From the NCBI GenBank assembly GCA_032718475.1, contig JAUCBJ010007407.1, positions 1 to 64,000 of the forward strand: DNA of 64,000 bases, given 5' to 3'. A model generated the notes under the pieces. It ran no database searches. It worked only from the letters and a program-made list of their open reading frames with translations, and was not told where the DNA came from. This stretch comes from Nemertoderma westbladi (Eukaryota; Animalia; Xenacoelomorpha). Numbering within the stretch: the first letter of the stretch is position 1; each line of letters opens with the position of its first letter. The translations under genes and the position numbers were made by a program. Shown in pieces: positions 734 through 60,785 of this stretch.

Positions 734-924
734 GTAAAAACTGCGGTATTCATGAAAGGAACTGCTGAGGCACGTTGGCTTGTCAATCACAGCCAGTGAA
801 TACAGGCTGAGTGTAAGTAAAGCCCAGCATGATGGCGCTGATGTAGAGTTCTCTATACCTTTAGGTAGAGAGAAAGGCTCCAGTGTAGTAATGGCTGGGC
901 TCGCCACTGTAGTAAACATGCCTG

Positions 925-1102
925 TAGATACTAGGCTCTGTTCCTCGCCAGTAGTCGTTTGTGTATTGTATCTGTTTGTTTAGATATCCTGGACTGGGAT
1001 TTGTTGTCAGATACTGTACAAGCCCGTATACATTACTAGAGTCTCATAGTAAGATACATCATTACTAGGATCTGGTAAGCGGTATACTACTGGACCCTTA
1101 CA
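925..1102 (+). repeat. Remnant (3' end) of the 5' LTR of element A
   Basis: Direct repeat of 18229-18406, ending ...ggacccttaCA. Confidence 0.93.
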
Positions 1103-1112
1103 GTAGGAAGTA
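1103..1112 (+). promoter_or_regulatory. Primer-binding-site position of element A, non-canonical (GTAGGAAGTA, no TGG)
   Basis: Directly follows the LTR-terminal CA. It is the exact reverse complement of LTR sequence tacttcctac (17131-17140). Element B also starts GTAGGAA at this position. Confidence 0.6.
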
Positions 1113-2116
1113 TTTTATATAAATTAGTATATAGTACTTCTATCATAGTGTATAGTATTCCTACCTTACAGTAGGAAGTATATTATACAAATTCTGAGAT
1201 TAGCGTATAGTATAGTTTAGAATTGTTAGCTATTGAAAGTAGGAGATATTTAAAATCTAAGGTTAGTAAATTTAGTAATTTAGAACGTCCCCTGCTTCAG
1301 TAGGCTTTTAGGGTAGCTAGTACTTTCGTATTTAATATTTGACTAGCTAACAGTTAGTTTGTAGCACTTTGTTTTACGCCGTGTGTGTGCGGTGTTACTT
1401 TTCGGTACTTGAAAAGGTACATAGGGTTTAAAGACCAATTTGTATCGGTACCTAGGAAGATTTTTCGTAAGCGTAGAAGTAAAACTCTCACCTTCGACCT
1501 TTTCAGGACTCAAGGACTCATTTCTGGACCGCTTCGAGGATTAGACCGCTTTTCGCAAAGTTTGGGAGACAATAAATTCGTCCGCGCCGCCGAAAAACGG
1601 AAAGACCCACGTCCGGTTTGTATTTGGGAATTTGTACGACTGGAAGATCAAAGGAACGTAAGTTTTACGACTCGCGTCGTTCAAACTTAAGAAAGCACAG
1701 TAGTACTCAAAATTTGTGGGTTTCACTGTCTATTAGTAGTGTTGTTGGTACTTATTTTCCTGTTAGACGTTGCTGTTTGGCCTATTGTTTATACTTGTTG
1801 ATCTATATTTTGTTAACGTATACCGTTATCTCATTTATTCGTACAAATTTAGCCGGTAGGCTAGATTACTACTTATTTTATTATATACCTTGTTAGTTTA
1901 TTTGTACCGGTTAGGGTATATATATGATATATATATATATCAAGGTAAGTTTGACATTTGTACATTTTGACATTTTGACATTTCGACATTCTGACTTGTT
2001 GATTTATTTGTACCGGTTAGGGTATATATGTACTATATATACCAAGGTAAGTTTGACACTTCAACATTCAGACACTTTGACATTTTATTACCCTTAATTG
2101 ACGTATATAATAAGAC

Positions 2117-4495
2117 ATGAGTGACACACCCCATTCGACGAGATACCCACCTACCGACTATGACTCGTGCGACCCGGACAGATCGACAGTAGACGAACCG
2201 AGAAGGAGAACCCGAGATTCCACCGATGTCACACCGCTTGCGTCGCCGGTACCCCGAACGGAAATACCGGAAGCCGCAACGCGTGGCGACGGCAGAATCG
2301 AAGATTTCCTTACCGTCCCGCAGACTAGATCGCGGGAACCGGACATGGTAAGTTCGACTGGAAGCCAGGAGAACGTTATTAGAAGTATAGGAGGACACAT
2401 GGCCCAGATTACTCGGAACCTCGGAGAAGGTTTTCGCGTTTTACGCGAGTTAACCGCCCCGATGTCGAGATACGAGTTCTACACCTTACAGGTAAGGATA
2501 GAAGGTAGGGTACATGCCTCCGTAGATAAACTTAAAGGTTTGCACGAACTTGCAGAGTTGCGTGGCGACAACTTTACTCAGGTAAAGATAGTAGATAAAT
2601 TGGTAAGTGCGAGAGAAAGCCTTATCCAGTTTAAGTCGGTGATAAGATTGGCTCAACAGGAGCAGTTCGACCAACTGCTAGGTGAGTCAGTTTCGGACGC
2701 GTTGTTACAACCCGAAGAGGAAGAAGAACTCTACTGCCTGGACGGAAGGTTGGAAACGCTGACCAATTTTCTTCGTAGATGCGGCGTACCGATCGACGAA
2801 CCGGAAGTCGAACCGCGAGGGACAACGAAAGTTCTCACTACGGAAGGCTCGCGAGCCTACCAACATCCACCACTGGATAGATCGTTCGTTAGCGTACGGA
2901 GCGACGTTGGCAACGTTGGCGACATTAGTAGAACAGCGTCTGGAATTACTCGACAACAACAGGAGGTTGCACGCCGACAACAAGTCGCCGAGGAAGAAGC
3001 GCGACACCAGATGGCACAGATCGCCATCGAAGGAGAGAAACAACATAGAGAGGACGAGGCAAGAATTGCACAACTCAAGGCGCAAGCCGAATTCGAAGCT
3101 TCGGAGATGCGCAGATTGGAGGAGGACTTAGTGCGAGAAGCGGCAGCCGACGAGTTAGCACGACAGGCGGCAGCTGACGTGTTAGCACGACAGGCGGCAG
3201 CTGACGAGTTAGCACGGAAGAAAGCAGCATCCGACGCTCGTGCCAAGTTGGAGGCGCGGCAAATAAACGCTCGATTAGCTATACAGGAAGCTGAGTTAGC
3301 GGCACAACAACAGGATGCAGATCGAAGCGAAAGGGAGATGCAACTACAGTTCGAATTGAATCGTAGATCGCGCGAGACAGCGAACGCGCAAGCGGACCTC
3401 GAACTCGACGCGAGAGATAGATCTATAAGATCGCGAACTGGACACAACTTGTCTGCCCTGGATCGTATGGAAGCTCGATATTGCGGAATACAGAAGCGGA
3501 TCGAGGAAGGAAGCGTGGGAGCGATAGATCGAGGAGAGGAGTTCGTCGAGGATTACTGTAAACGTTTTCCCCAAGTTATTCCTATGCTCAAACCCACGAC
3601 TCCGATAAAACCGGTCTTTGTTACGAAACCTAAGGAAATAACGCCTGTGCGTTCGACGCAAGGCAACAGGTTTGTTGTGACGGAAATACCGCAACCTAGG
3701 GCGACTTCATCGCCAATCTTAGCAGGTAACGTAACTAGTCCACCTACAGTAAGTCGTAGTCTACTTGTAGGAAGAGAGGAACCTGCGTTTATGACCATTA
3801 AACAGGTGAGTAAACCATTACAAGTTAAACCTGTGACGTGCTGTGCAAATCCAGTTATTTACAGACCGACTACGAAACCCGACTATTTCACTCGACCGTT
3901 GACACAATGTTCGACGCAACCTACGACTTCGTGGAAGGCTTGCGAGCCTACCGAACTACGGAGGAGGATGGATGTGGGTAGTACCCACGGGATCGGACAA
4001 CGTATAGCGAGACCTACGACTTCGTGGAAGGCTTGCGAGCCTACCGAACAACGGAGAGCCGTAGATTCCGGACCACAACGGACGAAATCGAGAATAATAC
4101 GCCGGACACGAACCCGCCAACCACCTTATCCGGACGACAGCGACTCATCTAGTGACTCGGAGTCGACGGAACGGGAAATATTCCGTACTGGAGCGGCGGA
4201 AGATTATAAACGAGAGGAACGATCGACGAACCCCTATATCGACAATCCTCCACGAGAAACACCCCAACAGAAACCCACGTTGAAACCAGCGGAAACGATC
4301 AGCGCTAAACAGTTCACCGAGATGACGGACAGAATAGCTCAACTCGAAGAACGACTCGAAGCGCAACCGTCGGATCGATCACGAACCAGCGTGGAGTTGG
4401 AACAACCTAGACAACATCGACCACCGAGGAGAGAACAGGAGACTAGACGGACTCCGACACATCGAGAAGATGATCCCGTTAATAATTCCTACTGA
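2117..4495 (+). CDS. gag: Element A polyprotein part 1: Gag N-terminal extension (Ala/Glu/Gln coiled coil); ends at an in-frame TGA
   Basis: 792-aa ORF homologous to B ORF 42026-43738. In the same frame as 4553-7024 with only the TGA at 4493-4495 between them; B has a sense codon there. Confidence 0.85.
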   Translation: MSDTPHSTRYPPTDYDSCDPDRSTVDEPRRRTRDSTDVTPLASPVPRTEIPEAATRGDGRIEDFLTVPQTRSREPDMVSSTGSQENVIRSIGGHMAQITRNLGEGFRVLRELTAPMSRYEFYTLQVRIEGRVHASVDKLKGLHELAELRGDNFTQVKIVDKLVSARESLIQFKSVIRLAQQEQFDQLLGESVSDALLQPEEEEELYCLDGRLETLTNFLRRCGVPIDEPEVEPRGTTKVLTTEGSRAYQHPPLDRSFVSVRSDVGNVGDISRTASGITRQQQEVARRQQVAEEEARHQMAQIAIEGEKQHREDEARIAQLKAQAEFEASEMRRLEEDLVREAAADELARQAAADVLARQAAADELARKKAASDARAKLEARQINARLAIQEAELAAQQQDADRSEREMQLQFELNRRSRETANAQADLELDARDRSIRSRTGHNLSALDRMEARYCGIQKRIEEGSVGAIDRGEEFVEDYCKRFPQVIPMLKPTTPIKPVFVTKPKEITPVRSTQGNRFVVTEIPQPRATSSPILAGNVTSPPTVSRSLLVGREEPAFMTIKQVSKPLQVKPVTCCANPVIYRPTTKPDYFTRPLTQCSTQPTTSWKACEPTELRRRMDVGSTHGIGQRIARPTTSWKACEPTEQRRAVDSGPQRTKSRIIRRTRTRQPPYPDDSDSSSDSESTEREIFRTGAAEDYKREERSTNPYIDNPPRETPQQKPTLKPAETISAKQFTEMTDRIAQLEERLEAQPSDRSRTSVELEQPRQHRPPRREQETRRTPTHREDDPVNNSY

Positions 4496-4552
4496 CGAAC
4501 AACGCGCGGAAGGGAGCGACTGGACGACGCCGCCGAACAGGGACGCGGACAG

Positions 4553-7024
4553 TTGGACTTAGTTAGCGAGATTGCGAAATTCGCAGCTAGACACGGATTA
4601 CCGGCACAGCAACCGCCGAAGTTCTCTGGCAACGCGAAACACTGGCGCACACTGGTAGACTACGTAGAGTCCCAGATCGCTAAGTGTGCTTTCACCTCAA
4701 CGGAGAAGTTTAATTACTTGCTCCAAGTCCTGTCTGGTGAGCCGAAACGATTAGCGGAAACCTTTATCGGTGTTCCCGATGCCTTTGAGTTGGCGTACGA
4801 CCGTTTGTATTCAATTTACGGCGGTAATGTCGCCATGGCTAAATCCATCATTGAAGACCTCTGCAGAGGAGGCAACATTTCGAGACCGATCGACCTTTTA
4901 CGACTCGCGGACGAAATAAAGAACGCTATAGGGACTTTACGGTCCATTGGACAACTCGAGTACGCTAACGCACCGACGGTTCTCATTCGAATAATCGGTC
5001 GACTTCATCATCGACTACGACGAGAATGGCGACGCATCGAGTACCAGCGTGAAGAGGCCGGAGGGTTATTAAAACTCACCGATGTCTATCAACTTATTTC
5101 ACGGGAGGCCGTGATCGAGACTCGATCGAACTATACCAATCACCATATCGCGGCGGAAGGGATAGCTGTTTCTGCGCCGACTCGGACAAAACCATTTCCG
5201 ACGAACGTGAAAGCCGTTACTTACGCCACCCCTACTGAGACTTCTAAAGTTCTGACGCCTATCGGCACCACGCAGCCACGACAACAGTTGCCGGCGGACT
5301 TTGTGGGATGCTCATACTGCGAGCGGAACGGCAGAAACCATAGCGGACATAAACTACGTGGATGTCGCGCTTTTAAAGAGTTAGGGATCGAGGAGAGGAG
5401 ACTCCAAATCCGATCTCTAGATTCCTGTTGGAGATGTATGAAGCCAGGACACGTCCGGAAGGATTGCCCGAGCGACGATACATGTTCTCTGTGTGGACGT
5501 AACCATGACGCGTTGCTTCACACAACCAGTCATACTCCGACCAGACGCTTTCGACGAGAGCATCCAGATAAAGCGGCTAGATGCGACGCGCTTTATAAGG
5601 AGCGTGCGCCGCGCGAGATCCGTACCTTTTATACCGACTGTATGGATCAGTCAGGATCATCGGACGAGGATGAGGAGGAAGACGACACCTTTTACGTGCA
5701 TGCAGGTGAGGAACAGCCATCGATAACGCTCCTCACACAGAACCAATTGAAAGGGTTTAGCGTGATTCCTATAAAGATTACCGGAACCCGAGGGAGCAAG
5801 CGTATATACGCCATCTTAGACTCTGCGTCATCGCATAGTTATGTCGACGAACAAGTAGCCGACGTAGTTACGGACATGAGTCAAGGTAAGACTGCTCAGT
5901 ATACTGTAAGCAGCATGCATGGTAAGAGAGCGATCCCTGTGACAAGAGTAAAACTAACCTTAGACACTCTTCTTTCCAAAGCGGAACACAGCAAGGAGGA
6001 GCGCTCATTACTTCCGGTAATAAATTTGACCTTTGCAGCTACGAAGGACTTTAGTAACTTGCTCGGCCCTGTGCCAGAGCAATCACCGGAAGATCGTAAG
6101 TATTTCCGACACCTTGGAATACCGGAATGTCCTGTCAATTATCGTTCCATTGCGATGTTAATTGGGACAGACCAGTTTAACTTACATCAGGTATGGGAGA
6201 CACGCCCATCTGTTATTACAGCGGGCAACCCCTACGCATGTAGAACTCCCATAGGTTGGTATACTAGAGCACCAATACGTTCACTAGAGGTAAGTGACCA
6301 GGAGGACGACGTTTTGAGTACGTGTAGTTTATTGACTAACACGATAGATAATTCTCCTTCACACTCCTGTGGTCCAATTGTACGGACGGCACTACGACAG
6401 ACTTGCGTCACTAACGCAGACGCCACCGATACTGACGTAACCGATCTGGACACGACCATACGGACCTCTGACTTACAACTACTTGCAGTAGACCAGGTTG
6501 TATTGACTACTGAAGACCTAAGGGTTGTTGCCGTGGATGACTCGATGAACGAGGATTTTGGAAGGCTTGCGAGCCTACCGAAAAATCCGAAGGTCATTGA
6601 CCCCACCCACCAGGCTTCGACACCGGTCGTTGATTTTGGAAGGCTTGCGAGCCTACCGATAGATCAAAAGGTTGTCAAACCGCCGCACGACAATTCGACG
6701 CCGACTAGTGACACCGGAAGGCTTGCGAGCCTACCAGACACATTGACACTAGCCACCGCAGCGGACGAAGACGTGGATGAGGACCATGGCGCAGTGCAAG
6801 CAGCGCTTGACCGACTGCTGACTGAACGGACCATACAATGGTTGGAACAGGACTCAGCAGAACCCGGTAGTTACGAGACCGCTATGTCAGAACAGGAAAA
6901 ATGGTCATTAAATATTATGAGAGATACCATTCGCCAGACCGCGAATGGCCACTATGAGGTTGGTATGTTGTGGCGCAATGGACAGGACAACCTAAGTTCG
7001 TTAACAATTACCCGCTTGCTTTGA
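4553..7024 (+). CDS. gag-pro: Element A polyprotein part 2: BEL Gag core (DUF1759-like), Cys/His knuckles, aspartic protease
   Basis: PPKFSGN..HW...KFNYLLQVLSGEP core; CWRCMKPGHVRKDC and CSLCGRNH knuckles; protease ILDSASSHSY. Frameshifted to part 3 by a 5-bp duplication ggaca|ggaca at 6980-6989. Confidence 0.9.
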   Translation: MDLVSEIAKFAARHGLPAQQPPKFSGNAKHWRTLVDYVESQIAKCAFTSTEKFNYLLQVLSGEPKRLAETFIGVPDAFELAYDRLYSIYGGNVAMAKSIIEDLCRGGNISRPIDLLRLADEIKNAIGTLRSIGQLEYANAPTVLIRIIGRLHHRLRREWRRIEYQREEAGGLLKLTDVYQLISREAVIETRSNYTNHHIAAEGIAVSAPTRTKPFPTNVKAVTYATPTETSKVLTPIGTTQPRQQLPADFVGCSYCERNGRNHSGHKLRGCRAFKELGIEERRLQIRSLDSCWRCMKPGHVRKDCPSDDTCSLCGRNHDALLHTTSHTPTRRFRREHPDKAARCDALYKERAPREIRTFYTDCMDQSGSSDEDEEEDDTFYVHAGEEQPSITLLTQNQLKGFSVIPIKITGTRGSKRIYAILDSASSHSYVDEQVADVVTDMSQGKTAQYTVSSMHGKRAIPVTRVKLTLDTLLSKAEHSKEERSLLPVINLTFAATKDFSNLLGPVPEQSPEDRKYFRHLGIPECPVNYRSIAMLIGTDQFNLHQVWETRPSVITAGNPYACRTPIGWYTRAPIRSLEVSDQEDDVLSTCSLLTNTIDNSPSHSCGPIVRTALRQTCVTNADATDTDVTDLDTTIRTSDLQLLAVDQVVLTTEDLRVVAVDDSMNEDFGRLASLPKNPKVIDPTHQASTPVVDFGRLASLPIDQKVVKPPHDNSTPTSDTGRLASLPDTLTLATAADEDVDEDHGAVQAALDRLLTERTIQWLEQDSAEPGSYETAMSEQEKWSLNIMRDTIRQTANGHYEVGMLWRNGQDNLSSLTITRLL

Positions 7025-10000
7025 GGCGACTCAAATCAATAAGGCAGCGATTGTTGCGAGACGAGATGGCCCATATGCAATACAATGCACAACTTCAGAC
7101 GTATCTCCAAAAGGGATACGCCATTAGGATGTTAAATCCCGAGGTAACCTCAGACCAGACATATTACCTGCCACATCATTTTGTTCGACACCCGGACAAA
7201 CCTGGCAAGGTGCGTGTAGTCAACGACTGCGCTGCGCTTTACCAAGGGATGTCTATGAATAGCGAACTGATGGACGGGCCGAATATGAATAATTACCTCA
7301 TGGGAGTCCTAATGCGTTTTAGACAACGCAAAGTGGCTTTCACCTGTGACGTAGAGGCCATGTTTCACCAGGTTAAGGCTTTGGAGCGGGACAGGGACAG
7401 TTTGAGGTTTCTTTGGTATCCGGACGGAAACTTACAACTTCCGCCAGAAACTTACCAAATGCAGGTAAGAGTATTCGGAGCCAGGGACAGCCCCAACTGC
7501 ACCATGTACGCCTTAAAGCAGACAGCATTGGACAGACGAGACCAATTTGACCCAGAAGTAGTTCGGACCGTGGAACGAGACTTCTACGTGGATGACGGCC
7601 TCAAGAGTTGTGACACCTTGGAGCGCGCTACAACCGTAGCACACCAACTCCAGGATTGTCTCGCTGAGGGCGGATTTCACCTGACGAAGTTCGCTTCCAA
7701 CGAACCCGAACTGGTGAACTCATTTGACCCGATGGATCGCAGTGGAGGTGACTTGGACTTAGACTTAGAACCTCTGCCGACGACCAAAGTATTAGGACTT
7801 AGTTGGGACCCTAACACCGACAATTTTAGGGTACGTGTAAGGTCCAACGATCGGACTAGACCTCTCACTAAGAGAACTTGCTTATCGACCATGAGTCGAT
7901 TGTATGACCCATTGTGTTTCATTAGTCCAGTGATCCTACATGCCAGGATCATACTCCGCAGCATTTGGCAAGCCGGACTGGAATGGGACGATCCCATCCC
8001 AGAAAAGTTAGCTGAGCGATGGAGGGACTGGGAAGCCCAACTGACGTTCCTACAAGACTATACCATACCAAGGGTATACTTTCCTTTGCAAACCACCTTT
8101 CCTGCTGATTTAGAGCTTCACAGCTTTAGTGACGCTAGCAAGGATGGATTGGGGGTTACTTTATACCTTAGACGACAAGTGACATCGGACAGCTACGATG
8201 TATCTCTCGTTACTTCAAGGGCTAGAACAATGCCATTGAAGTATATGACTGTACCTCGTGGGGAGCTGCAAGCCGGGACGATATCCACCGATATTGTCAG
8301 TCTAGTTCAACGCGAGCTGGAGGCTAACTTGAAGGTCACATATTGGACGGATGCGACGTTGGTACTTTGGTACATAAACAACGAAACATTCGAGTTCAAG
8401 ACTTTCGTAGCCAACAGACGGGCTGAAATATTAGACCGGTCGCTCAAACAAGATTGGCGTCACTGTCCAGGGAAGCTGAACCCAGCTGACATCGCGTCAC
8501 GGGGGATGCAACCACTTGACTTTTGTAAACCGGACAATAAATCCTTTTGGTTTAGAGGACCCGATTTCCTACAGCGACCATCAGACGAATGGCCACCGTT
8601 ATTCGACGCGACAACCAACACCATACCAGAGGGTGCCGAGATAAAACTCGACAAGGTTGTCAAGTCTAAAGCGAAAGCCAACGCCAAGGTCAAGAGGAAA
8701 AAAGGACGGACGAAATCTGATGACCTGGATGCCAGACCTGACATTACGCCAGACGTCTCGCCAGACACTCGACCAGACGCTTGTACAAATCCTTCGCCGG
8801 ATGTTCCGCGGGAGATTTCACCAGACGTTTCGCCGGATTGTTCACCAGATTACTCGCCAGACTATTCACCAGAAGAGACACCAGATTGTTCTCCGGATTG
8901 TTCGCCAGATTGTTTGATGGAACTCTCGACAGAATGTCTACCGGACGTCTCACCAGACTGTTCACCAGACATCTCGACAGACTGTCCACCAGACTGTCCA
9001 CCAGACTTTAGACCAGACTTTCTGACAGAAGTTACGCTAGACAGACTTTGGGACCGACGACAGGACATTTCGCCGGATGTTCCGCGCTATGTCTCACCAG
9101 ACGTCTCACCAGACTGTTCACCAGACGCTTCACCAGACTGTCTACTAGACACTCCATTAGAAGACCCATTGGAGCGGACTTTTAGAGACGTACCGAATTT
9201 GACTTCTTTGGACGACAGAGGTGTGGCCACAGGGATTACACTCCGCTCGAAGAAGGTACTTGACTTACCTACAGGTAAACGTGTGACTAAGGTTAGGAAG
9301 CTTACAGGCTCACAGGAACACACTGACACTGTAGAGTTGAAACCATTACTGCCAGTCGACACATTAGGTGCGGACGGTAAAGGTAAGACCGTAGAGATTG
9401 ACGTACTTGGGGATTCAGACAAACCTACGGGAAGGCCCGTGGGCCTACCAAGTCCAGACAAGTATCCACACTACGACTACACCTTACCTGATGACGTCAC
9501 CAACACTTACGTTGACAGGATAGTGAACCTAACTAGATCATGGACTGACGCGTGCCGCAAGTTAGCATGGCTCAAACGATTGAGACAATATGCCAGAGGC
9601 AAACGCGACTTTCCTAGAAGACTTACCTTAAAGGAAATTGGCCACTGTGAAGTTGATATCATTCGACATTATCAATTGCGATATTTCGCACGAGAGTTCA
9701 CAGCGATCAAACAAGGTAAACAGATTAAGTCTTCACCGATTTTGAGTTGGAGTCCGATTATTTACCGGGGCTTACTTTGTCACAAGTCCAGACTACAAAA
9801 CATCGACTTTGCACTTGACTTTAGGTATCCTATCATCATACCGCAACACCATGAGTTACAGCGCGCTATGATACTGGACGCACATGTACAACTCAAACAC
9901 GTAGGTAGACACCACTGTCTATCACACTTACGCTCGAGGTTTGTACTGATTAGACCTAGTAAGGCACTGAGTTCGGTAACACGGAACTGTATTATTTGTA

Positions 10001-11016
10001 AGAAGGTGCACGCGAGGATAGGACACCAAGAAATGAGTGAACTACCACTAGCTAGATTACAGGCGTTTAGACCCCCTTTCACTGAGACAGGGATAGACTG
10101 TTTTGGACCCATAATCGCGAAACGCGGAAGGGTACAGGTAAAACGTTGGGGATTGATCTTCACTTGCATGGCCAGCAGAGCTGTCCATATAGAGCGAGTG
10201 ACAGACTTGACCACCAATGCCTTTATCCTAGCCTTACTGCGATTTATCGCTAGACGTGGATTGGTCAAATCCATATACTGCGACCAAGGGACAAACTTTG
10301 TGGGTTCACGGAACGAGATAACCAGAGCTTTGAGAAAATTGGACCAAAACCAGATTTCCGAGGAACTACGTCCTCACCGTATTGTTTGGGTTTTCAATAC
10401 TCCAGACAGTCCGTGGAGAGGCGGCGTTTGGGAAAGGCTGATTGGCTCAATAAAGACAGCTATGGCTAAAGTCGTACCGACGCAACACACCTTGACAGAC
10501 GACCAACTAACGACGTTACTAATAGAAATCGAAGCAATCTTAAATACCAGACCGATCGCTTTGATCCCAGACAATAACGACGTACAGTTTGCCTTGACAC
10601 CAGCGCACCTGCTTATGCAGGCGCCGACGACATTGTTGCCCATTTCGGTACCCGTTGATAGTGACGGATACGGCAACAAAGCTTGGAAAATCACTCAATT
10701 ACTTGCAAATAAATTCTGGGAAATATGGCAGAAATATTATTTGCCCTCTATTTCGACCAGAACTTCCTGGTATCTAAATACCCGATGTTTAAGACGTGGT
10801 GACCATGTTTTATTGGCTGAAGCTAATCTGAAAAGACGGTTTTGGCTGACTGGAGTCATTTTGACCACGCACCCTACATCTGGTGTAGTGAGGACAGTTA
10901 CTGTACGGACTATCGACGGACGTACCGTAGACAGACCTGTACAACGTCTCGTACTCCTTGAGGAAACTAGAAACGAGACGGGAGACTACAAATCTCCACC
11001 CAATATTAGTAAATAG
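6970..11016 (+). CDS. pol: Element A polyprotein part 3: reverse transcriptase, RNase H (Peptidase_A17-type region), integrase
   Basis: YYLPHH..KVRVVND, DVEAMFHQ, FYVDDGL (RT); HSFSDAS, YWTDA, NPADIASRG (RNase H); HHCC zinc finger, GIDCFGP, CDQGTNF, GGVWERL (DDE integrase); BEL C-terminal domain RPVQRLVLL. Confidence 0.95.
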   Translation: MAQWTGQPKFVNNYPLALRRLKSIRQRLLRDEMAHMQYNAQLQTYLQKGYAIRMLNPEVTSDQTYYLPHHFVRHPDKPGKVRVVNDCAALYQGMSMNSELMDGPNMNNYLMGVLMRFRQRKVAFTCDVEAMFHQVKALERDRDSLRFLWYPDGNLQLPPETYQMQVRVFGARDSPNCTMYALKQTALDRRDQFDPEVVRTVERDFYVDDGLKSCDTLERATTVAHQLQDCLAEGGFHLTKFASNEPELVNSFDPMDRSGGDLDLDLEPLPTTKVLGLSWDPNTDNFRVRVRSNDRTRPLTKRTCLSTMSRLYDPLCFISPVILHARIILRSIWQAGLEWDDPIPEKLAERWRDWEAQLTFLQDYTIPRVYFPLQTTFPADLELHSFSDASKDGLGVTLYLRRQVTSDSYDVSLVTSRARTMPLKYMTVPRGELQAGTISTDIVSLVQRELEANLKVTYWTDATLVLWYINNETFEFKTFVANRRAEILDRSLKQDWRHCPGKLNPADIASRGMQPLDFCKPDNKSFWFRGPDFLQRPSDEWPPLFDATTNTIPEGAEIKLDKVVKSKAKANAKVKRKKGRTKSDDLDARPDITPDVSPDTRPDACTNPSPDVPREISPDVSPDCSPDYSPDYSPEETPDCSPDCSPDCLMELSTECLPDVSPDCSPDISTDCPPDCPPDFRPDFLTEVTLDRLWDRRQDISPDVPRYVSPDVSPDCSPDASPDCLLDTPLEDPLERTFRDVPNLTSLDDRGVATGITLRSKKVLDLPTGKRVTKVRKLTGSQEHTDTVELKPLLPVDTLGADGKGKTVEIDVLGDSDKPTGRPVGLPSPDKYPHYDYTLPDDVTNTYVDRIVNLTRSWTDACRKLAWLKRLRQYARGKRDFPRRLTLKEIGHCEVDIIRHYQLRYFAREFTAIKQGKQIKSSPILSWSPIIYRGLLCHKSRLQNIDFALDFRYPIIIPQHHELQRAMILDAHVQLKHVGRHHCLSHLRSRFVLIRPSKALSSVTRNCIICKKVHARIGHQEMSELPLARLQAFRPPFTETGIDCFGPIIAKRGRVQVKRWGLIFTCMASRAVHIERVTDLTTNAFILALLRFIARRGLVKSIYCDQGTNFVGSRNEITRALRKLDQNQISEELRPHRIVWVFNTPDSPWRGGVWERLIGSIKTAMAKVVPTQHTLTDDQLTTLLIEIEAILNTRPIALIPDNNDVQFALTPAHLLMQAPTTLLPISVPVDSDGYGNKAWKITQLLANKFWEIWQKYYLPSISTRTSWYLNTRCLRRGDHVLLAEANLKRRFWLTGVILTTHPTSGVVRTVTVRTIDGRTVDRPVQRLVLLEETRNETGDYKSPPNISK
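8730..9150 (+). repeat. Coding 12-bp minisatellite (ccagac-based; S-P-D-C/V repeats) between RNase H and integrase
   Basis: Repeated tcaccagac/tcgccagat units giving SPDVSPDCSPDYSPD...; B has an analogous PDGQPDML array at 37430-37690. Confidence 0.85.
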
Positions 11017-11511
11017 ATGTGGGACCTTTGTTGGCCGCCACATAGACCTACTGTATTTTAGTTATTTGTATTTGTAGTACTGTACGTGCATTTGTAATCC
11101 TCTTCACTGTAGATAGAGACAGCGGTGGAATTCCATTGTCTTTATACGTGAACATGGAGGGTAGTACCCTTATGTATCACATAGGAGCGGGATTGTGTGT
11201 ACAGTAGGAATGGAATTCCACTTGGAACCCACAAGTGAGACAATTTTCAAAAATTATTAGACAAATCCATTTAGTTGGATTTTAATTTAAGAAAAACGAT
11301 TCTCCAGTGAAAAGCAAATTCTAGAATACAGCTAGAAAAAATTAAAATTGGGGAGGACAAGAGCGGATGGAAGGCTTGCGAGCCTACCGATAAATTTTTT
11401 TTGGAAAAAGAAAATCGGTCTTGTTCTACGTAGTCGTGTCTACTATTATTTAGACCAATTAATTCTCGACTGCATTATTTTCTTGGGAAACGTAGTTTGG
11501 GAAATTAAAAG

Positions 11512-11708
11512 GTGAGTATTTTAGACTCGCGGCTAGTTTACCCGGAATTCGTTTTTTATCGGCACATTTTGGATTAGGAGCCAGTGCGAAATCACGCGAA
11601 CCCGAAGTCATTAGGCAAAATGGGTTGGGGTTTAGAGCAGAGTTGAGCCAAAAGCCGACAAACTCTAAAGTCACCTCACATCTAACCTCTATTTTGTGCT
11701 TCATCTAG
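11512..11708 (+). other. Putative intron in the leader of the accessory gene
   Basis: Donor AG|GTGAGT at 11512, branch CTAAC at 11682, pyrimidine tract and CTAG ending 11708, 40 nt before the ATG at 11749. All three signals are conserved in B (35031 to 34827, minus strand). Confidence 0.55.
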
Positions 11709-11748
11709 TAGAAACGTAACGATATGTAACCGCATATATTCGTATACG

Positions 11749-12663
11749 ATGGCGGAGAAGATGTATAAAGAGTTACGTCAAGGGTTTACGCAAGAACAGG
11801 AGCACCAGGCGCCATTCAATCGTTATGGAGCTAAAAACTTTAGTGTGTTTGGAGTGGAGAGTATGGCTAGGAGTACGGCCAAGCTCGCTAAATCAAAGGC
11901 GGACCCGAATGTTACGCGACAGCGGTTGGACGCATACAATAAAAGAACGGAGGAATTACGCGCGGAATACAATGCGTTATATCCCTACGACGCGTTATGC
12001 GACGCTAGCGACATTTGCGAGGATCCAGACACCGAAATACGCCAATTGTATCATACGCTGCAATATTTAACGGTAAACGAACCTTTACCTGCAGCTAGAG
12101 ACGAATTTGAAGGAATGCATCTTTATAGACGCGCTCGAGGAGCGGATCCAGAGACCAAGGACGCGTTTTCCGTATACAAACTGTTTTATAAATGTGGAGC
12201 GTGTATGCGCGAGCAAGACAACGCGATTCCTATGCGGTTGAACTCGGAGAACCCCGAGCCGATATTAGCGCGATGTTCACACCACCAAAGTCTACGTTAC
12301 CAAGAAGGCGGATACCCTTTGACAAATCCGTATCATTCATTTAAGATGAGTGGACCGAACGCGGGTGAGATCGTTATTTACGAACCAAAATTAGTCGAAC
12401 CAGACGTCTACAGCATGGTAGTGGACGAGTCTAATAAGTCGACACAAGAGAAATGGGAAGCTTTGAGCCTCTACAGGGCGTACAAGGCGTACGAGAAAGG
12501 CGAGATCGAGGAGTTCGGCGGAAGGCTCGCGAGCCTACCATTCTATTGGATATCCCACGATCAAACCGAACCCAAGGAGATGACACCCGAGCTCTTCGAT
12601 AGTATCACCTTTGCTCAGCGTTTGTCGCAGAGACTACAGATACCTCATGTCGAGATGACGTGA
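11749..12663 (+). CDS. Element A accessory gene, N-terminal part (unknown function)
   Basis: 304-aa ATG ORF whose N-terminus is homologous to B 34600-34795 (APFNRYGAKNFSVFG vs APFERFGAKDYTIFG). The frame stays open after the TGA at 12661-12663 into 12829-15504. Confidence 0.8.
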   Translation: MAEKMYKELRQGFTQEQEHQAPFNRYGAKNFSVFGVESMARSTAKLAKSKADPNVTRQRLDAYNKRTEELRAEYNALYPYDALCDASDICEDPDTEIRQLYHTLQYLTVNEPLPAARDEFEGMHLYRRARGADPETKDAFSVYKLFYKCGACMREQDNAIPMRLNSENPEPILARCSHHQSLRYQEGGYPLTNPYHSFKMSGPNAGEIVIYEPKLVEPDVYSMVVDESNKSTQEKWEALSLYRAYKAYEKGEIEEFGGRLASLPFYWISHDQTEPKEMTPELFDSITFAQRLSQRLQIPHVEMT

Positions 12664-12828
12664 GAACCTCAGCCCCATTCTACTGGAGCGATAGTACCGG
12701 TTGCGAGACCAACTAGTTTTCCTATTAGTATACCGACCCGGAAGGAGACAACTTACGAGATCCCTATAGTTGAACACCCGGAGATCATCTCGAACCTGGA
12801 TTTCCTCCCATCGGTCACCTTCGGTGAT

Positions 12829-15504
12829 GTGTTAGAATCAACCGAGTTGCGTAAAGTAATAGTTCAAAAAATCGTACGCAACGTGCCTCCACATATCACG
12901 GACTTTAAGGAAGTGGATCGCGCGGGGACGGATATCGCACCTTGTATCTTGAGAGGATATCTGACGAAAATGATTCGATTATGGATCGGAGTTGGGACGT
13001 TTGAGACCGACACCGATATCGCGACCAATTGGACTGGTAAACCTATTAGTTTCGATGACGAAAAGTCGATCGGGAGAATTTGGAACCCTACCGACGATTT
13101 ACTCGACGATTGGGACGTGACTAGCCGATCTCTGAAAGAGAATGGATATATGTTCTACGATAATGAAGGAGGAAGCCATCAGCAAAGCCTCACTTCAAAG
13201 ACTATACAGATTAGAGCACCAGATGGCGTGTTACATGTCTTCAGCCGACAGAGGAGTGATAGGAAGATGCCTATGCCGGAAGGAACGACGCAAAGACACG
13301 CGATGATAAAACGGATAGTTAAATCCATGGACCTGGCTTGTAGCATAGAAGCTAGGATGTTGCCAAAGGCCGTGCGAGACGTTGTGTTGGATAAGAGCAT
13401 CGTCAAGATCGGATCCGGTGTACGGGATGACCTCATTAGCGACTTTGCAGGGATGCCCACGGAAGAGGACCGATTGCCTACGCCATACGTGGATACTAGA
13501 CCATTGTTGCTTTGGGCTATTGAGCAAGGATACTTTAGAGAGTATAACACGCTAAAAACTGGGACGGGTTATATCTCATATCTGATGTTCAGTTGGGATT
13601 ACAAGGAGAGTAAGAGGAACAAATACACGGACGTATACGGAGAGGGAGATACCCCCGGCGTAAACGAGTTCGAGTCACAGTTAAAGTGGCGAGGTTGCGT
13701 GTATTGGGCGATTACTTCACCTCCGCGGATAATCTTGCAATACTATTTAGCGATAGAATCTTCGGTTAACGTTTGTTTCATCGCGGACGTAGTATCCAGA
13801 ACCTTAAAGCGACACCCGTTATGTCTTGGCGAAGGACATACCTTTTACGAAGGAGGAAGGATGCATACTGATGTATTCCGACGATTTCTCCAACCCTTTT
13901 ATAACACTGATGCGCACTGCGAAGTTTTCACGCGAGCGGGACTTAGCGTTTTCAGGGACGTCTATCTCACTCACGCGGGAAGTCTAGTCGACAGACCGTC
14001 GATGTTAACGTTAGTACCCTATGACGGGGAACGCCACGCGGAATTCGAACGCCCGGAAGGATCCTGGAAGGCTCGCGAGCCTACCGCCCATCATGACGAT
14101 GTGGATCCGACCGAGTTGGCGCAAATAGACGAACCGTTACGGCAACTTATAGAAATAGAGGAGAACCTTCCGAGGAAGACGCGAACTGAGATACGCGAGT
14201 TAGAGAAAAGCGATGCCATGGTTTGTGTACAACCTACGGAGACGAACATACCGACTGACCCGGATGATGAGAATTATCACGTGGATGGTAGCGCTCACCC
14301 CATCGGAGATCTCATCTATGAGCGAGTTTGGTATCCTGCCAACACTATTTGTGGCAGATGTGGAGCAACTGGCCATCACGCAAAGAAGTGCGGAGCGAAG
14401 CACATATCTCTACCGGATTTAGTATGCAACTGGTGCAGGGATCAACGTTCGCACACTTTCTACACTTGCTGGCGTTTCGTGGCGCAGTGTACTTATTGTA
14501 ATATTAAGGGCCATAGGGCATCTGAATGTCAACTTAGAGACGTCCCCTATGAGCACATGTCAGTTAAAATCGTTCGACAATTATTCGACCATTGGGAGGA
14601 TCTAGCAGACGAGCATGTATCGACGCACCGACGCCGCTTCCTTATGAGAGCACATTTGGGATTTTGGGCCGTAAACCCTCTCATAATGTCAAAGGAAGGA
14701 TATGTATCGGCTATGCCTCAGTACGATGAATTGTTGGAGGTATTGGATATATTGCCGTTGGACAGTGGATTCAAAGTTGTGCGGGACTATTTCTTACAAG
14801 TGCACCCCGACAACAAGAATACTTGGAACTTTCAAACTGTGGTGAACAAGATTACCGCCGGAGAATTCGATAAACTGCGAGTTGAACAGCGGAATCGAGG
14901 AGCCTGGCATTCGATAGCTTGGGCATACCGGAGCGCATTTTATCACAAACGCGTAACCTCGTGCATTCTGGACGAGACCGACGTTTTGCGTGAGACTGGC
15001 TTCAAGGCCACGCCGTTAGCGGAGAAGACGCGTCACCCACAGGATGATCAGCAATTTCGTATACTCAAAGCCCAGAAGGCCGGACAAGAGATTAAGAAGA
15101 TAGTGAATGTCGCCGAGAGGACGACATCAAAGTCGCAAATCCGGATGACTCGGGGCACGGTTTCCCTTGCTAGAGAACCACGCGGAGGGACAGGATACGC
15201 TTTGACTGAACCCATTAGGATTCAAACGACGTCAGAGAGCGAGGTGTCAACGGACGGAACAGTCCTACCTTTTCGACTTCCTCCTAGCGTTGTAGAAACT
15301 CGATCCGATGTTAAGCCGACAGTTGGAATCGGACGAGGATTTAGAGGATTAAGCGCACGACGGATGTGCGAAACTCCCGTCGTCCCCTTTCCTAGCGTTT
15401 TGGAACCACCGACGACTCGACGCCGAAGTCCGAGCCAAGTTCGACCTCGACCACCCCCCAATCGCACTAGAGGACGTGGACGAGCCCGCTCAGCGAAGGA
15501 ATAG
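12829..15504 (+). CDS. Element A accessory gene, main part: DEDDy-type 3'-5' exonuclease-like domain, three zinc knuckles, Arg-rich tail
   Basis: MFYDNEG (ExoI), TIQIRAPDGVLHVF, LPKAVRDVVLDKSIVKIGSGVRDD (ExoII), YVDTRPLL, QYYLAIES (ExoIII-like); knuckles CGRCGATGHHAKKC, CNWCRDQRSHTFYTC, CTYCNIKGHRASEC; tail RGRGRARSAK. Domain call by motif recognition only. Confidence 0.75.
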   Translation: MLESTELRKVIVQKIVRNVPPHITDFKEVDRAGTDIAPCILRGYLTKMIRLWIGVGTFETDTDIATNWTGKPISFDDEKSIGRIWNPTDDLLDDWDVTSRSLKENGYMFYDNEGGSHQQSLTSKTIQIRAPDGVLHVFSRQRSDRKMPMPEGTTQRHAMIKRIVKSMDLACSIEARMLPKAVRDVVLDKSIVKIGSGVRDDLISDFAGMPTEEDRLPTPYVDTRPLLLWAIEQGYFREYNTLKTGTGYISYLMFSWDYKESKRNKYTDVYGEGDTPGVNEFESQLKWRGCVYWAITSPPRIILQYYLAIESSVNVCFIADVVSRTLKRHPLCLGEGHTFYEGGRMHTDVFRRFLQPFYNTDAHCEVFTRAGLSVFRDVYLTHAGSLVDRPSMLTLVPYDGERHAEFERPEGSWKAREPTAHHDDVDPTELAQIDEPLRQLIEIEENLPRKTRTEIRELEKSDAMVCVQPTETNIPTDPDDENYHVDGSAHPIGDLIYERVWYPANTICGRCGATGHHAKKCGAKHISLPDLVCNWCRDQRSHTFYTCWRFVAQCTYCNIKGHRASECQLRDVPYEHMSVKIVRQLFDHWEDLADEHVSTHRRRFLMRAHLGFWAVNPLIMSKEGYVSAMPQYDELLEVLDILPLDSGFKVVRDYFLQVHPDNKNTWNFQTVVNKITAGEFDKLRVEQRNRGAWHSIAWAYRSAFYHKRVTSCILDETDVLRETGFKATPLAEKTRHPQDDQQFRILKAQKAGQEIKKIVNVAERTTSKSQIRMTRGTVSLAREPRGGTGYALTEPIRIQTTSESEVSTDGTVLPFRLPPSVVETRSDVKPTVGIGRGFRGLSARRMCETPVVPFPSVLEPPTTRRRSPSQVRPRPPPNRTRGRGRARSAKE

Positions 15505-16142
15505 AAAGCGAGTGGAAGGAAGGCTTGCGAGCCTACCGATTTGAATATTATATTTGGATATTATATTTGGATATTATATTTGGATATTATATTTGGATAT
15601 TTATATTGGACATTATGTTTGAATGTTGGGTTTGGAGGAGCGAGATATGGAAAGGAAGGCTTGCGAGCCTACCGTTAGCAATTGGTGCTCAGGAGAAGAT
15701 ATCCAGACCAGCAGGACGAACTTTTCAGATCGTCAGGAGGACTCTTTAAGACTTATTTGAAAGTTATTAGCGCATTGTGTTTATATTATATTTGGACTGA
15801 TTTAATTTGGTGAAGGTTTATTATGTATATTTACAATATATAAAGATTTATCGAAAGAGTTTGATTTATTTGTTCGATTTGTTTTGATTTATTTGTTCTG
15901 ATTTGTTTAATTTGCTTACCTTGATAACCGAAAGCCTTTTTTTGTATTTTAGGCACTAAAGTTAATTCGTAAATTTGTATTTGTATGTACGATCGATTGT
16001 ATTTACGCCGTATCTGCAATATTAAGTATGCAATAATTAGATAGTGATTATATTTTATATTTTAGGCCCTACCAGTAAATTTAGAAATAGTTTGTAAATA
16101 TTTTTTATTTCGATTGGTGAAAACAGTCTTACTTACTGTTTT

Positions 16143-16152
16143 CATGGAGCGG
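16143..16152 (+). promoter_or_regulatory. Polypurine-tract position (catggagcgg) before the 3' LTR of A
   Basis: The same GGAGCGG directly precedes the 3' LTR in B (32312-32318, minus), C (25513-25519) and D (60708-60714, minus). Confidence 0.75.
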
Positions 16153-16294
16153 TGATGAATTATTTCACTATAAGGTAGCATTTGTAGTTTAACTTTAACG
16201 TAAAAACTTTCGAAAATCCGACGTATTTTGATTAAGTTACAGTAATGTAATATGCCTATTCATATTTGTACACATAAAACCCTTAGGTACTCTC

Positions 16295-16377
16295 GTGGCG
16301 TAGTGGTCAGATGGTTAAGGCGTTGGTTACATTACATAGGTTACGAGTTCGAATCCCAGTCGGGAAATTTGTATTTT
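16295..16377 (+). ncRNA. tRNA-derived Pol III cassette (A box, B box, T-run) inside LTR A
   Basis: gtggcgtagtggtcagatggttaaggcg...gagttcgaatcc followed by tttt. Stems pair poorly, so this is not a functional tRNA. Confidence 0.6.
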
Positions 16378-16440
16378 GGGACCATTTATTTTCGTTTGGT
16401 GCTAATTGGTAGGCCAATGAGAAGCGTACAACGTAGCGAA

Positions 16441-16656
16441 TAATGAGCCAGGCCAATCATAGGGCATAAATTATCTTATTGCTCAAATGTGAGGCAGTGG
16501 AAAATTCTGTTAGGATTCCATGTCCCAGATTAGTGTAAGGGCCGGACTGCGTTGAACGATGAGCTGGGCCAATCATAGGGCACGAAGCACTTTATTGCTC
16601 AATTGTGAAGCTGTGGAAAATTCTGTTTAGTTTCCATGTGCGATTTTAGTATAAAA
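16441..16656 (+). promoter_or_regulatory. LTR A promoter: duplicated ~117-bp CCAAT-box units and TATA box (16650-16656)
   Basis: Two copies of ggccaatcatagggca...tggaaaattctgtt, then TATAAAAGG. B has TATAAAAGG at the equivalent place (31880-31888, minus). Confidence 0.65.
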
Positions 16657-18406
16657 GGCCGGTTTGCCTTCGGTTATTATCTCTCTTACCACACCCTTAT
16701 AACCCTTATGTTAGTTTATTCGGTTTCTTGTTGAAACTTCGTTTGATAATTCTTTGTAAAACTGTAAATATACTGCAATTCCTGAACATGTTTTCCTTTG
16801 GTCCAACTTTGGGACAGCCAAACATCAGGGAGATGGCAGCCTAGACCGTTAGGCCGTAAGCAACGCAGGGAAGGGGTGTCCACAACACGCTAGCGCCCAC
16901 ATTGGATCGACCGCGCACCCCCTTTGCCCCTTCGAAATGCTCCACTTGCTATGCAGCGCCCGCTTTGTGAGAAGGTAAGACTTTGTTCGACGCCCTTGCC
17001 CGCCGTAAGACCTATAGATCAGGGTAAGCGTGACACCGTACTGGACGCCGCAAATTTAGGATCAAATAATTATATCCAGACAACCCCCCCCCCCCCTTTG
17101 TCAAGTCCTACGAATCCCTGGGTTAACCTGTACTTCCTACAGGTGCGAACTATTGCCATTCGTCAGTACGCGAGTACATATTAGGTACGGACAGCATATG
17201 TTCCATAATTTAGTGATTCATAGCACTGACTGTTTGGTACCGGTTCGCTTTGTAGAACGTACATTAGTACCCCCCCCCCCCCCCCCCCTGTCTGGAGTTA
17301 GCTATTTGATCAGGCAAGGAGCATTTCTGCTACCGGCACACTGCTTGGCCTAGGGAGGTTTATTAATATCCTACCGCGCCTTGCCACGTACTGATAGGTA
17401 TTGCTGCTAACTACCGCAGCAACAAAGTTCTAGAATTAAATTAGTATACCAGATCAGCTAACGTACGGTAGCGATTAACCCCTATTCTTATCTTACAACC
17501 AGAATCTGGTATTAGTGCCGATCACGGGTGTAGTTACTAACACTGTGGTTGCCCATTGGGTTGTGGATAGGAAGGAGAGAGCTTTGACGTCATTCGTGAG
17601 TATAAAGTTCTACAAAACGCGACTAGTTTATTTTAGTAGCTAGCGCACGGTATCATTTTAGTCAGAAAATCACTAAAACCTAGTAAAAGGAATTACACGA
17701 AATTGTTTTATTTGTAACACACCCACACACACACGCCCTAAAACATATTGCCCTTAAAGTTCTACTAGCTATAGCGCACTATACATTACTTTAGGTGGAA
17801 ATTGTCTGTATTTGTAAAATTAGGATCTGATTTAGTTGCGGCAAGATAGAGTATTTCACTTTCGTTATTAAACTGTTGATTTCTGTCCAGCAGTTATTGT
17901 TACATTTAGGCTTGACCCTTTAGACTGATTTCGTACAGGGGGATCAGTTATCGTTACATTTAGGCACGACCCCTTTTCGACTGATTTAGGACAGTCAGTG
18001 TTGTTACGCTAGGTCTGTTAACCCACTAGCTCGTATATAAACCATATAAATCACACCGCGGCAAGTTACTGTATTTAGGACTGTCAGTGATAGTTAGGAT
18101 TCGCTGCGCGGGGATTGTTTTCCCGTGAGTTTGGTCTGTTACTGTAACTGTACATCTGCCTCACCGGTTAGAGGACAGGTATCCTTCTGTCTAGTACGTA
18201 GGCATTAGACCCGCTCACGTACATAGAATAGATACTAGGCTCTGTTCCTCGCCAGTAGTCGTTTGTGTATTGTATCTGTTTGTTTAGATATCCTGGACTG
18301 GGATTTGTTGTCAGATACTGTACAAGCCCGTATACATTACTAGAGTCTCATAGTAAGATACATCGTTACTAGGATCTGGTAAGTGGTATACTACTGGACC
18401 CTTACA

Positions 18407-25441: not shown

Positions 25442-25519
25442 CTGTTTAGAGTATTTTTATATTTTAGAAACTGTGATTTTTTATATTTTATAGACTAAAA
25501 TCCCATTTTCTGGGAGCGG

Positions 25520-32311: not shown

Positions 32312-32823
32312 CCGCTCCATGAAAACAGGATATTATCGTGCATAAAATATACGGTTTTCACCAATACTAAATCAAATTATGGAATACTTGGGACGTACTT
32401 ACATATTTACAAATTAAATTATCAACAATAATACCTCTACATAATAATTCGATACAAAAATAATTACAAATTCAAATTTACGTATTTAAGGCTTTATTAA
32501 GTAAGTACAATATAAATCTAAATTAAATTCACCAAAATAAATCTATTGCATCTCAAATATTGCATAAATTCAAAGAATCACAAATACTAATACTACTTAA
32601 ATATAAAACAAATTGCATAAGTGCGGAATAAATCACAAGAAAGGCTCACAAGTCTTCCGTCTGCTCTTGCCTTCTATTTACTGCGAATACAAATACTGCT
32701 TCTTTATAAAATATAAATTGCATAATATTCGAAACAATAAATTGCGTAAGTTTGGAATGACTACAAATATAGCACTTTCTAAATATAAATCTTTCTAAAT
32801 GCAAATCTTTACTAAATATAGAT

Positions 32824-32930
32824 ATAAACTGCATAAGTTTAGAACAATATAAACTGCATAAGTTTAGAACAATATAAACTGCATAAGTTTAGAACAATAT
32901 AAACTGCATAAGTTTAGAACAATATAAACT
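32824..32930. repeat. 25-bp tandem repeat (ataaactgcataagtttagaacaat) x~4 in the 3' UTR of B
   Basis: Direct inspection; degenerate copies at 33045-33100. Confidence 0.85.
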
Positions 32931-33193
32931 CTTTAGGCATCTCAAATATAAAATATAAATCTTTCAAATATAAATTCCTTCTAAATACAAAACTTTCTGA
33001 ATTTCATAAAATCGGAACAATACAAATACATAAACTTGGGGCAATAATAAATTGCATAAATTTAGAACAATATAAATTGCATAAATTTAGAGCAATATAA
33101 ATTTTAAACAATACAAATTACACAAACAATACATAAGACAAACAATTCATAAGAAAGGCTCACGAGTCTTCCGTCCACTCCTTCCTTCCCGCT

Positions 33194-44988: not shown

Positions 44989-44999
44989 CATATTCCTAC
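44989..44999 (-). promoter_or_regulatory. Primer-binding-site position of element B, non-canonical (GTAGGAATATG)
   Basis: Adjacent to the 5' LTR end; exact complement of LTR sequence at 46026-46036 and 31450-31460. Confidence 0.62.
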
Positions 45000-60707: not shown

Positions 60708-60785
60708 CCGCTCCCAGAAAATGGGATTTAAGTCTATAAAATATACAAAATCACAGTTTCTAAAATATAAAAATACTCTAAACAG

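Follow-up and report, generated by a model that had tools for sequence, protein, structure and literature searches.

Selection and compaction of genomic RNA by retrotransposons with long terminal repeats (LTRs) have been learned largely through 5' signals of a small number of model systems. Single-stranded RNA viruses and the pregenome of hepatitis B virus are described as carrying dispersed packaging signals, among which varied affinity is the rule (PMC6281560), and in muPsi of Rous sarcoma virus (RSV) a UGCG tetraloop is bound by a nucleocapsid CCHC knuckle via an exposed G (PMC8833184, bioRxiv 10.1101/2023.11.30.569461). VANC of the Arabidopsis VANDAL transposons acts on family-specific target motifs in anti-silencing (PMC5735166), and the rotifer LTR retrotransposons Juno and Vesta are reported to encode a DEDDy exonuclease in a third open reading frame, ORF3 (PMC5408684). 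Among titles and the opening parts of abstracts, with subscription journals and supplements outside the search, we found neither dispersed near-identical hairpins in an LTR retrotransposon nor any account of cis signals of BEL/Pao elements. Here we analyse 64,000 nt of the genome of the xenacoelomorph Nemertoderma westbladi (assembly GCA_032718475.1, contig JAUCBJ010007407.1, positions 1 to 64,000; hereafter the window), in which a BEL/Pao retrotransposon, element A, repeats a 20-mer along its coding strand and a sister, element D, carries variants of it. The motif is real and selected, and it is so far found in these two elements of one genome.

A 20-nt motif along the coding strands of two BEL/Pao elements

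All 11 copies listed for element A by the initial annotation were recovered as exact matches to GGAAGGCTYGCGAGCCTACC on the plus strand (Table 1), identical over 19/20 bases, and a twelfth copy at 9430, with 3 mismatches, had been overlooked. A control of 100 dinucleotide shuffles gave no match to GGAAGGCTYGCGAGCCTACC, even allowing 3 mismatches, and within the window the exact 20-mer is restricted to element A. Since five copies stem from two local duplications (3933/4026 in one of 93 nt, 6560/6638/6716 in one of 78 nt), the copies amount to about eight sites and not to 11 independent events. Translation bore out the three reading frames that had been described, giving EGSRAY, WKACEPT/WKAREPT and GRLASLP, as well as the three non-coding copies; the three frames and the copies in the 3' untranslated region (UTR) rule out a constraint at the protein level.

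Elements A and D lie on opposite strands, and their Pol proteins are 70% identical (895/1276 residues). The initial annotation had not seen the motif in the LTRs or in its elements C, D and E. Element D contains 11 variant copies with 2 to 6 differences each, all on its own sense strand. A profile search (score of at least 11) left both the LTRs and the remaining 36,263 bases of the window without a match. The sense-only orientation that had been claimed for A thus extends to 23/23 copies in both elements, at about 10 independent sites. Nine D copies lie at seven places matching copies in A and two are specific to D, while A has one specific copy, plus one in a stretch lost from D. The whole-element DNA alignment of A with D is unreliable past 11.9 kb, as D lacks part of ORF3, and the matches of the three 3' copies were set by local alignment, by eye or by order. 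Seventeen of the 23 copies are in coding frames, some of them within local tandem repeats. The first copy lies inside gag, 1.7 kb (A) or 0.9 kb (D) downstream of the 5' LTR, and none is found in the 5' leader.

Selection on the nucleotide sequence and placement of the copies

The proposal that the constraint acts on nucleotides and not on protein agrees with the comparison of A and D. Three non-coding matched pairs are identical at 47/60 bases, a figure somewhat inflated because the copies were picked as motif matches, versus 137/368 at fourfold-degenerate pol sites. Two copies are retained in each 3' UTR, though the UTRs otherwise barely align. Because the non-coding copies are conserved against saturated silent sites and the 3' UTR copies are kept, we conclude that the motif is under nucleotide-level selection. 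In public contigs the first 3' copy runs, at its end, into shorter and differing spacers that lead to where the second begins; these contigs have short sides, and some may derive from other copies. Across the family, positions 15470-15720 contain 7 variable places in 251 nt and none in the 40 motif bases (1.1 expected), which is not significant.

As we read the domain map, the copies occupy linkers between domains, the spacer separating pol from ORF3, and the 3' UTR; the 7 gag and pol copies of A fall in the lowest 1-38% of local protein identity. The 8 collapsed sites are spaced more evenly than random (coefficient of variation 0.40, p=0.006; p=0.015 for the largest gap, which is 2.8 kb), partly because the linkers are themselves evenly spaced. 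Sites present in one element only show no 20-base insertion (length differences of 0 and a few nt), which suggests that linker sequence is overwritten by the copies; as no matching gain in length is seen, a mobile 20-mer that inserts itself is ruled out. The six non-coding copies of A and D are preceded by 20-mers with 16-17/20 purines, and equally purine-rich 20-mers make up 2.3-2.5% of those in the UTRs. Upstream of the coding copies, 16/17 20-mers contain 8-13/20 purines.

Concerted change and predicted folding

The copies have changed together. Pairwise differences average 1.0 base among A copies, 4.3 among D copies and 3.9 in matched A-D pairs. Position 6 is G in 12/12 A copies and A in 10/11 D copies, a contrast that holds in 7/8 matched pairs; since this position splits A from D, the same base was altered at no fewer than seven scattered sites in one lineage. 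In A the mismatch is A.A at pair 3:18, whereas in three non-coding D copies 3:18 is an A-U pair and the mismatch is A.C at 6:15. Concerted change of this kind could come equally from co-change with a cognate protein or from conversion between copies; in the reading favoured below the family difference would reflect the former.

In element A the motif is predicted to form a hairpin with a YRYG loop. Folded in isolation it gives 7 Watson-Crick pairs, a 1x1 A.A mismatch and a 4-base loop at -7.6 kcal/mol, as had been described for the loop; the stem had been given as 8 bp with one mismatch. The stem forms in a 160-nt context in 8/12 A copies on the sense strand (7/12 antisense). In four copies both partners of a pair have changed in that copy alone; the covariation score is equalled in only 2/500 shuffles and the share of paired cells in 6/500. 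Where a change is uncompensated, five pair positions give G.U on the sense strand, and two positions that are normally paired give A.C. The central four bases, closed by a U-A pair, take five forms, of which UGCG is the commonest (the others are CGCG, CGUG, UGUG and CAUG), and are self-complementary in 26/26 cells on the sense strand and in 15/26 on the antisense strand. G12 is invariant in 23/23 copies, including 8 in which it is a silent third position, and a GC dyad is present in 17/23. CpG decay as a general cause of the loop variation is ruled out, as CpG is not depleted. The evidence for an RNA hairpin is mixed, and conservation of the simple sense hairpin between A and D is not supported: sequence and dyad symmetry are kept more firmly than a stable hairpin.

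Candidate roles of the motif

As the best explanation, we lean, at somewhat less than an even chance, towards dispersed RNA tags read by the element's own zinc knuckles. The 20-mer would be a selected motif repeated along the coding strand as tags on the genomic RNA, and a zinc-knuckle protein, most likely Gag and possibly ORF3 (CCHC knuckles are present in both in element A), would bind the copies many times over. Multivalent binding would select and compact the 15-17-kb RNA for packaging, which would be the step served, with the RNA strand as the working form. By analogy with muPsi, the knuckle may read the invariant G of the YRYG loop. Because every copy is self-complementary, pairing of one copy with another may occur as well, in the manner of retroviral dimer-initiation hairpins.

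The initial annotation had likewise read the motif as a protein-binding RNA hairpin, a signal for packaging, export or localisation plausibly bound by Gag or the accessory zinc knuckles, with a repeated DNA-binding site as the alternative. Nucleotide-level constraint, sense orientation, even spacing, modest covariation and the RSV precedent favour that reading; conservation of the hairpin, as it was proposed, is not supported. Several results weigh against RNA tags. A stem G-C pair is replaced by an A.C mismatch in 10/11 D copies, the D sense hairpins reach only 0 to -3.4 kcal/mol, and the antisense strand folds better in 10/11. The stem forms in a 160-nt context in only 1/11 D copies, and the hairpin appears in 0/11 minimum-energy folds with 30-nt flanks. 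Stem cells pair in 84/104 cases on the sense strand versus 88/104 on the antisense strand, and the loop C-to-U bias is based on few events. Changes on both sides affect only 3/10 pairs, a number reached in 87/500 shuffles, which themselves ignore relatedness. The fixed orientation is also expected from local duplication or conversion, and no copy of the motif occurs in a third BEL/Pao family of the window, over the 7.1 and 3.3 kb of it that could be scanned. In packaging, dispersed signals are known to differ in strength, and weak D copies would therefore be tolerated. The comparison of A with D covers two elements of one genome, at the level of sequence.

A more far-reaching version of RNA tagging, possible but on the doubtful side, is a genome-wide self-recognition barcode. 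A self-complementary hairpin in every inter-domain linker would be concertedly rewritten as families diverge, with a single mismatch shifting its position in the stem. Its readers would be the knuckles of the element itself, among them those of the RNase-D-like ORF3, and each family would thereby pack, pair or spare only its own RNA. Should the RNA-tag reading be right, the concerted change of a dispersed motif would offer a simple system for studying how transposon families tell self from non-self.

A double-stranded DNA site, quasi-palindromic and bound by a dimeric protein, would best account for the weak folding in D; the protein would be an anti-silencing factor of the element (VANC-like) or a host protein, and the sites, dispersed over the integrated copy, would keep it active. 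One degenerate half-site on both strands fits all variants, and no stable stem is needed. Family-specific motifs that co-change with a transposon protein are on record (PMC5735166), and the N-terminal 300 residues of ORF3, which have no family assignment, contain a Cys/His cluster. We regard such a site as unlikely: being near-symmetric, it has no need of one orientation in 23/23 copies, it gives no reason to expect both partners of a pair to change within a single copy, and no copy lies within the LTRs. VANC motifs are described as 8-9 bp, non-palindromic and located in non-coding tandem repeats, CpG has an observed/expected ratio of 1.22 in A and 1.14 in D, and ORF3 matches no DNA-binding family.

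Self-complementarity also admits pairing of copy with copy, through a loop-loop kiss and then a 20-bp duplex, in which case the motif would provide many dimer-initiation sites linking two genome copies or folding the RNA, and nucleocapsid would be a general chaperone. For duplexes between A copies the mean is -30.8 kcal/mol when the sense strand is used; the antisense strand gives -25.5 and random 20-mers give -6.0. The self-complementarity of the loop is preserved in one case via a double change, and the GC dyad is as in retroviral dimer-initiation palindromes (PMC13736810) and PAL1/PAL2 of Ty1 (PMC6844567). D duplexes make this role distinctly unlikely, averaging -14.6 kcal/mol, no better than the antisense -16.6; A-D hybrids (-21.5) are stronger than D-D pairs, so pairing cannot explain how the mismatch spread through D. 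Dimer sites in the systems described also cluster at the 5' end (PMC13736810, PMC6844567).

Sites for a host RNA-binding protein, serving export, localisation or shielding of the long unspliced RNA, would share the orientation, spacing and conservation data with tags read by the element's knuckles, and the purine-rich 20-mers before the six non-coding copies could be counted in their favour. They are quite improbable, as a conserved host factor gives no reason for concerted change between two families in one genome, and an Rfam search of element A (800-18500) gave no match at E values of up to 1. The shapes of the selenocysteine insertion sequence (SECIS), histone stem-loop and repetitive extragenic palindrome (REP) do not fit, again with no Rfam match.

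The better antisense RNA folding in 10/11 D copies would suit a minus-strand form, in which hairpins on single-stranded cDNA or antisense RNA mark sites of plus-strand priming or pausing; the non-coding copies come after purine-rich tracts, and few purines are present in the tract that adjoins the 3' LTR. Under DNA parameters, however, the D hairpins reach only 0 to -1.7 kcal/mol, most coding copies have no purine tract, and the loop asymmetry favours the sense strand, all of which leaves this form very improbable. That the motif is a neutral mini-repeat, which template switching or conversion has spread and which linkers alone tolerate, has next to no probability and is largely refuted: some copies do come from local duplications and linkers do tolerate neutral change, but matched sites are kept while silent sites are saturated, one-element sites show no 20-nt insertion, and the remaining 36 kb of the window do not contain the motif. 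With a defined 20-mer, a dozen copies and a natural sister variant, the question can be tested with short RNAs and knuckle domains.

Structure of the elements and ORF3

Element A is a member of the BEL/Pao LTR retrotransposons with an extra ORF3. Pfam identifies Gag DUF1759 (E=1e-9), the Pao peptidase A17 (5e-40), integrase (2e-4) and DUF5641 (5e-18), the domains are ordered protease, reverse transcriptase, RNase H, integrase (PR-RT-RH-IN), and element D has the same Pfam families. Gag and pol are in different frames in A and in the same frame in D. Both copies are damaged: two in-frame stops disrupt A (gag and ORF3), and in D the gag frame is interrupted by three stops and ORF3 has lost an internal part. 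The LTRs of D start and end with TA, not TG..CA, and its flanking 5-bp duplication is GTTAA.

Element A is deeply covered along its full length by public contigs (26,378 records in one run), and its family is therefore abundant in its host. Contigs from two public runs skip most of the ORF3 DNA (12311-15374) and keep the 3' UTR side, pointing to putative internally deleted derivatives. Among the sequencing runs listed with matches none is recorded as RNA, and one may be an RNA run, a listing without bearing on expression.

ORF3 of A probably encodes a DEDD-type 3'-5' exonuclease, a candidate assignment for which Pfam gave no hit. A profile of the domain had two matches only in the PDB, both weak, to EXD2 (E=0.054) and WRN (E=0.28); the Atlas places it in a WRN-like exonuclease cluster at 0.90, and D-x-E and D are invariant across 3 sequences of the domain. 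A longer profile had its best PDB match in 7C42 (E=0.0013), mostly via the knuckles; the database names this entry a CCHC-domain protein, and we take it to be trypanosome RNase D. AlphaFold models of ORF3 had a predicted local distance difference test (pLDDT) score of 33 and 32, too low for use. An exhaustive search of 1.84 billion proteins yielded two relatives (E=3.5e-4 and 6.7e-4), both of which are distant and align across the exonuclease-like domain and the knuckles; two word-indexed searches found none, and viral and metagenome contigs contained no ORF3 loci.

Several further features of the elements were observed. The RNase H-integrase linkers of A and D contain 12-nt tandem repeats of PDxS-type units (8745-9161, 37432-37682). 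No tRNA-type TGG primer site follows the 5' LTR in either element; the first 10 bases after the 5' LTR of A (1103-1112, plus strand) are perfectly complementary to the LTR stretch 17131-17140, and the first 11 bases in D (44989-44999, minus strand) to 46026-46036. These stretches lie 1.0-1.3 kb before the LTR end, and their letters differ between A and D. Complementarity of this kind arose by chance in 7/2000 (A) and 0/2000 (D) trials and suggests possible self-priming in both elements. Self-priming is known from Tf1. About 130 bases from their start, the LTRs of both elements contain, as seen by eye, a tRNA-like stretch with A- and B-box-like motifs, for which ARAGORN and Rfam made no call; it is possibly an RNA polymerase III promoter or insulator. 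In all four elements of the window a conserved purine-poor tract ending in GGAGCGG lies directly before the 3' LTR and replaces the usual polypurine tract. Two arrays of 15/17-base units in opposite orientation (54080-54960, 55283-55851) resemble the termini of a fold-back element or of a miniature inverted-repeat one.

Table 1. Positions of the elements, motif copies and other features in the window.
Feature	Position	Strand	Remarks
Element A, BEL/Pao LTR retrotransposon	925..18406	+	5' LTR: last 178 nt only
Gag-protease frame, element A	2117..7024	+	DUF1759, CCHC knuckle; in-frame stop 4493-4495
Motif copy	2842..2861	+	Gag linker, EGSRAY; no counterpart in D
Motif copy	3933..3952	+	Gag linker, WKACEPT; 93-nt duplication
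Motif copy	4026..4045	+	Gag linker, WKACEPT
Motif copy	6560..6579	+	protease-reverse transcriptase linker, GRLASLP; 78-nt repeat
Motif copy	6638..6657	+	protease-reverse transcriptase linker
Motif copy	6716..6735	+	protease-reverse transcriptase linker
pol, element A	6958..11016	+	reverse transcriptase, Pao peptidase A17/RNase H region, integrase, DUF5641
Worn twelfth copy	9430..9449	+	RNase H-integrase linker; compensated stem pair U-A to C-G
Motif copy	11369..11388	+	non-coding pol-ORF3 spacer, after purine-rich 20-mer
ORF3, element A	11749..15504	+	~1250 codons; in-frame stop 12661-12663
Motif copy	12520..12539	+	ORF3, before exonuclease-like domain, GRLASLP
Likely DEDD-type 3'-5' exonuclease domain of ORF3	about 13114-13791	+	
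Motif copy	14066..14085	+	ORF3, between exonuclease-like domain and knuckles, WKAREPT
CCHC knuckles of ORF3	about 14340-14540	+	
Motif copy	15518..15537	+	3' UTR, after purine-rich 20-mer
Motif copy	15654..15673	+	3' UTR, after purine-rich 20-mer
3' LTR of element A	16153-18406	+	2.25 kb, ends TG..CA
Element D, sister BEL/Pao	30424..46882	-	two 1.9-kb LTRs 99% alike, 5-bp target duplication
Variant copy, D only	44084..44103	-	loop CAUG, compensated
Three variant copies (42383, 42299, 42215)	42215..42402	-	84-nt repeat; match A 3933/4026
Variant copy	39711..39730	-	matches A 6560-6735 cluster; two sense-strand G.U pairs
Variant copy, D only	37683..37702	-	pol linker
Worn copy	37032..37051	-	matches A 9430; compensated pair A-U to G-C
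Variant copy	35153..35172	-	matches A 11369, non-coding
Worn copy	34587..34606	-	matches A 14066 (placed by eye, downstream sequence); compensated U-A to G-C
Variant copy	33153..33172	-	matches A 15518, 3' UTR
Second 3' UTR variant copy	32639..32658	-	paired with A 15654 by order only
Third BEL/Pao family, partial copy	18407-26700	+	
Third BEL/Pao family, partial copy	59490-64000	-	
tRNA-like LTR stretch	16290-16365	+	seen by eye
tRNA-like LTR stretch	46685-46760	-	seen by eye
GGAGCGG tracts	16136-16152, 32312-32328, 25504-25520, 60708-60724		four elements

Searches beyond the two elements

The third BEL/Pao family has 45% Pol identity, and only its 3' part is present in the window, in two partial copies. 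A long spacer with a duplicated 160-nt unit follows its pol, and its degraded ORF3 is related to that of A, with homologous knuckle regions (E=1e-8). Beyond the window, viral contigs gave 0 exact matches to the motif. A wider motif pattern was found at 60 loci in metagenome contigs, each a single place, none with a BEL/Pao pol and 4/60 with a second weak profile match; we take these loci as chance. Viral contigs contained no pol relatives, and genome contigs contained 10 distant loci (27-42% identity), none with the motif or ORF3; repeated seeds occur at four of them (L001, L006, L008 and L009). A Gag search returned 9 distant proteins.

Comparison with known systems

Dispersed packaging signals are described as many short stem-loops of varying strength that share a recognition motif and run through coding sequence (PMC6281560), and elements A and D likewise have many copies of a shared motif spread along the sense strand. 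In the viral systems the shared motif is loose, whereas here the 11 copies of A are identical over 19/20 bases, self-complementary and located in an LTR retrotransposon. If the copies are RNA tags, packaging by many dispersed signals would extend from RNA viruses to retrotransposons.

The RSV signal muPsi differs in being a single 5'-leader signal, as against about a dozen copies along the genome here, where the loop is closed by a U-A pair; UGCG is nevertheless the commonest loop of the motif, and CCHC knuckles are encoded by the element. The palindromes of retroviral dimer initiation and PAL1/PAL2 of Ty1, as described (PMC13736810, PMC6844567), are few distinct 5'-end sites, and here one site occurs many times, in coding linkers and the 3' UTR; common to both are short imperfect palindromes with a central GC dyad and a capacity for a hairpin-to-duplex switch. 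Juno and Vesta also have a third open reading frame after pol with a likely DEDD-type exonuclease (PMC5408684). Here ORF3 belongs to a BEL/Pao element and is fused to CCHC knuckles, and the main text of the Juno and Vesta paper does not contain the word hairpin. On Daidara, a giant LTR lineage with accessory nucleases, no paper was found.

The targets of VANC, as characterised (PMC5735166), are DNA motifs 8-9 bp long; they belong to a DNA transposon, where they lie within non-coding tandem repeats, and the host is a methylating one. The likeness lies in a short family-specific motif that has accumulated in a transposon with an accessory gene and differs between sister families. If the DNA reading is true, the N. 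westbladi elements would provide an animal counterpart of sequence-specific anti-silencing.

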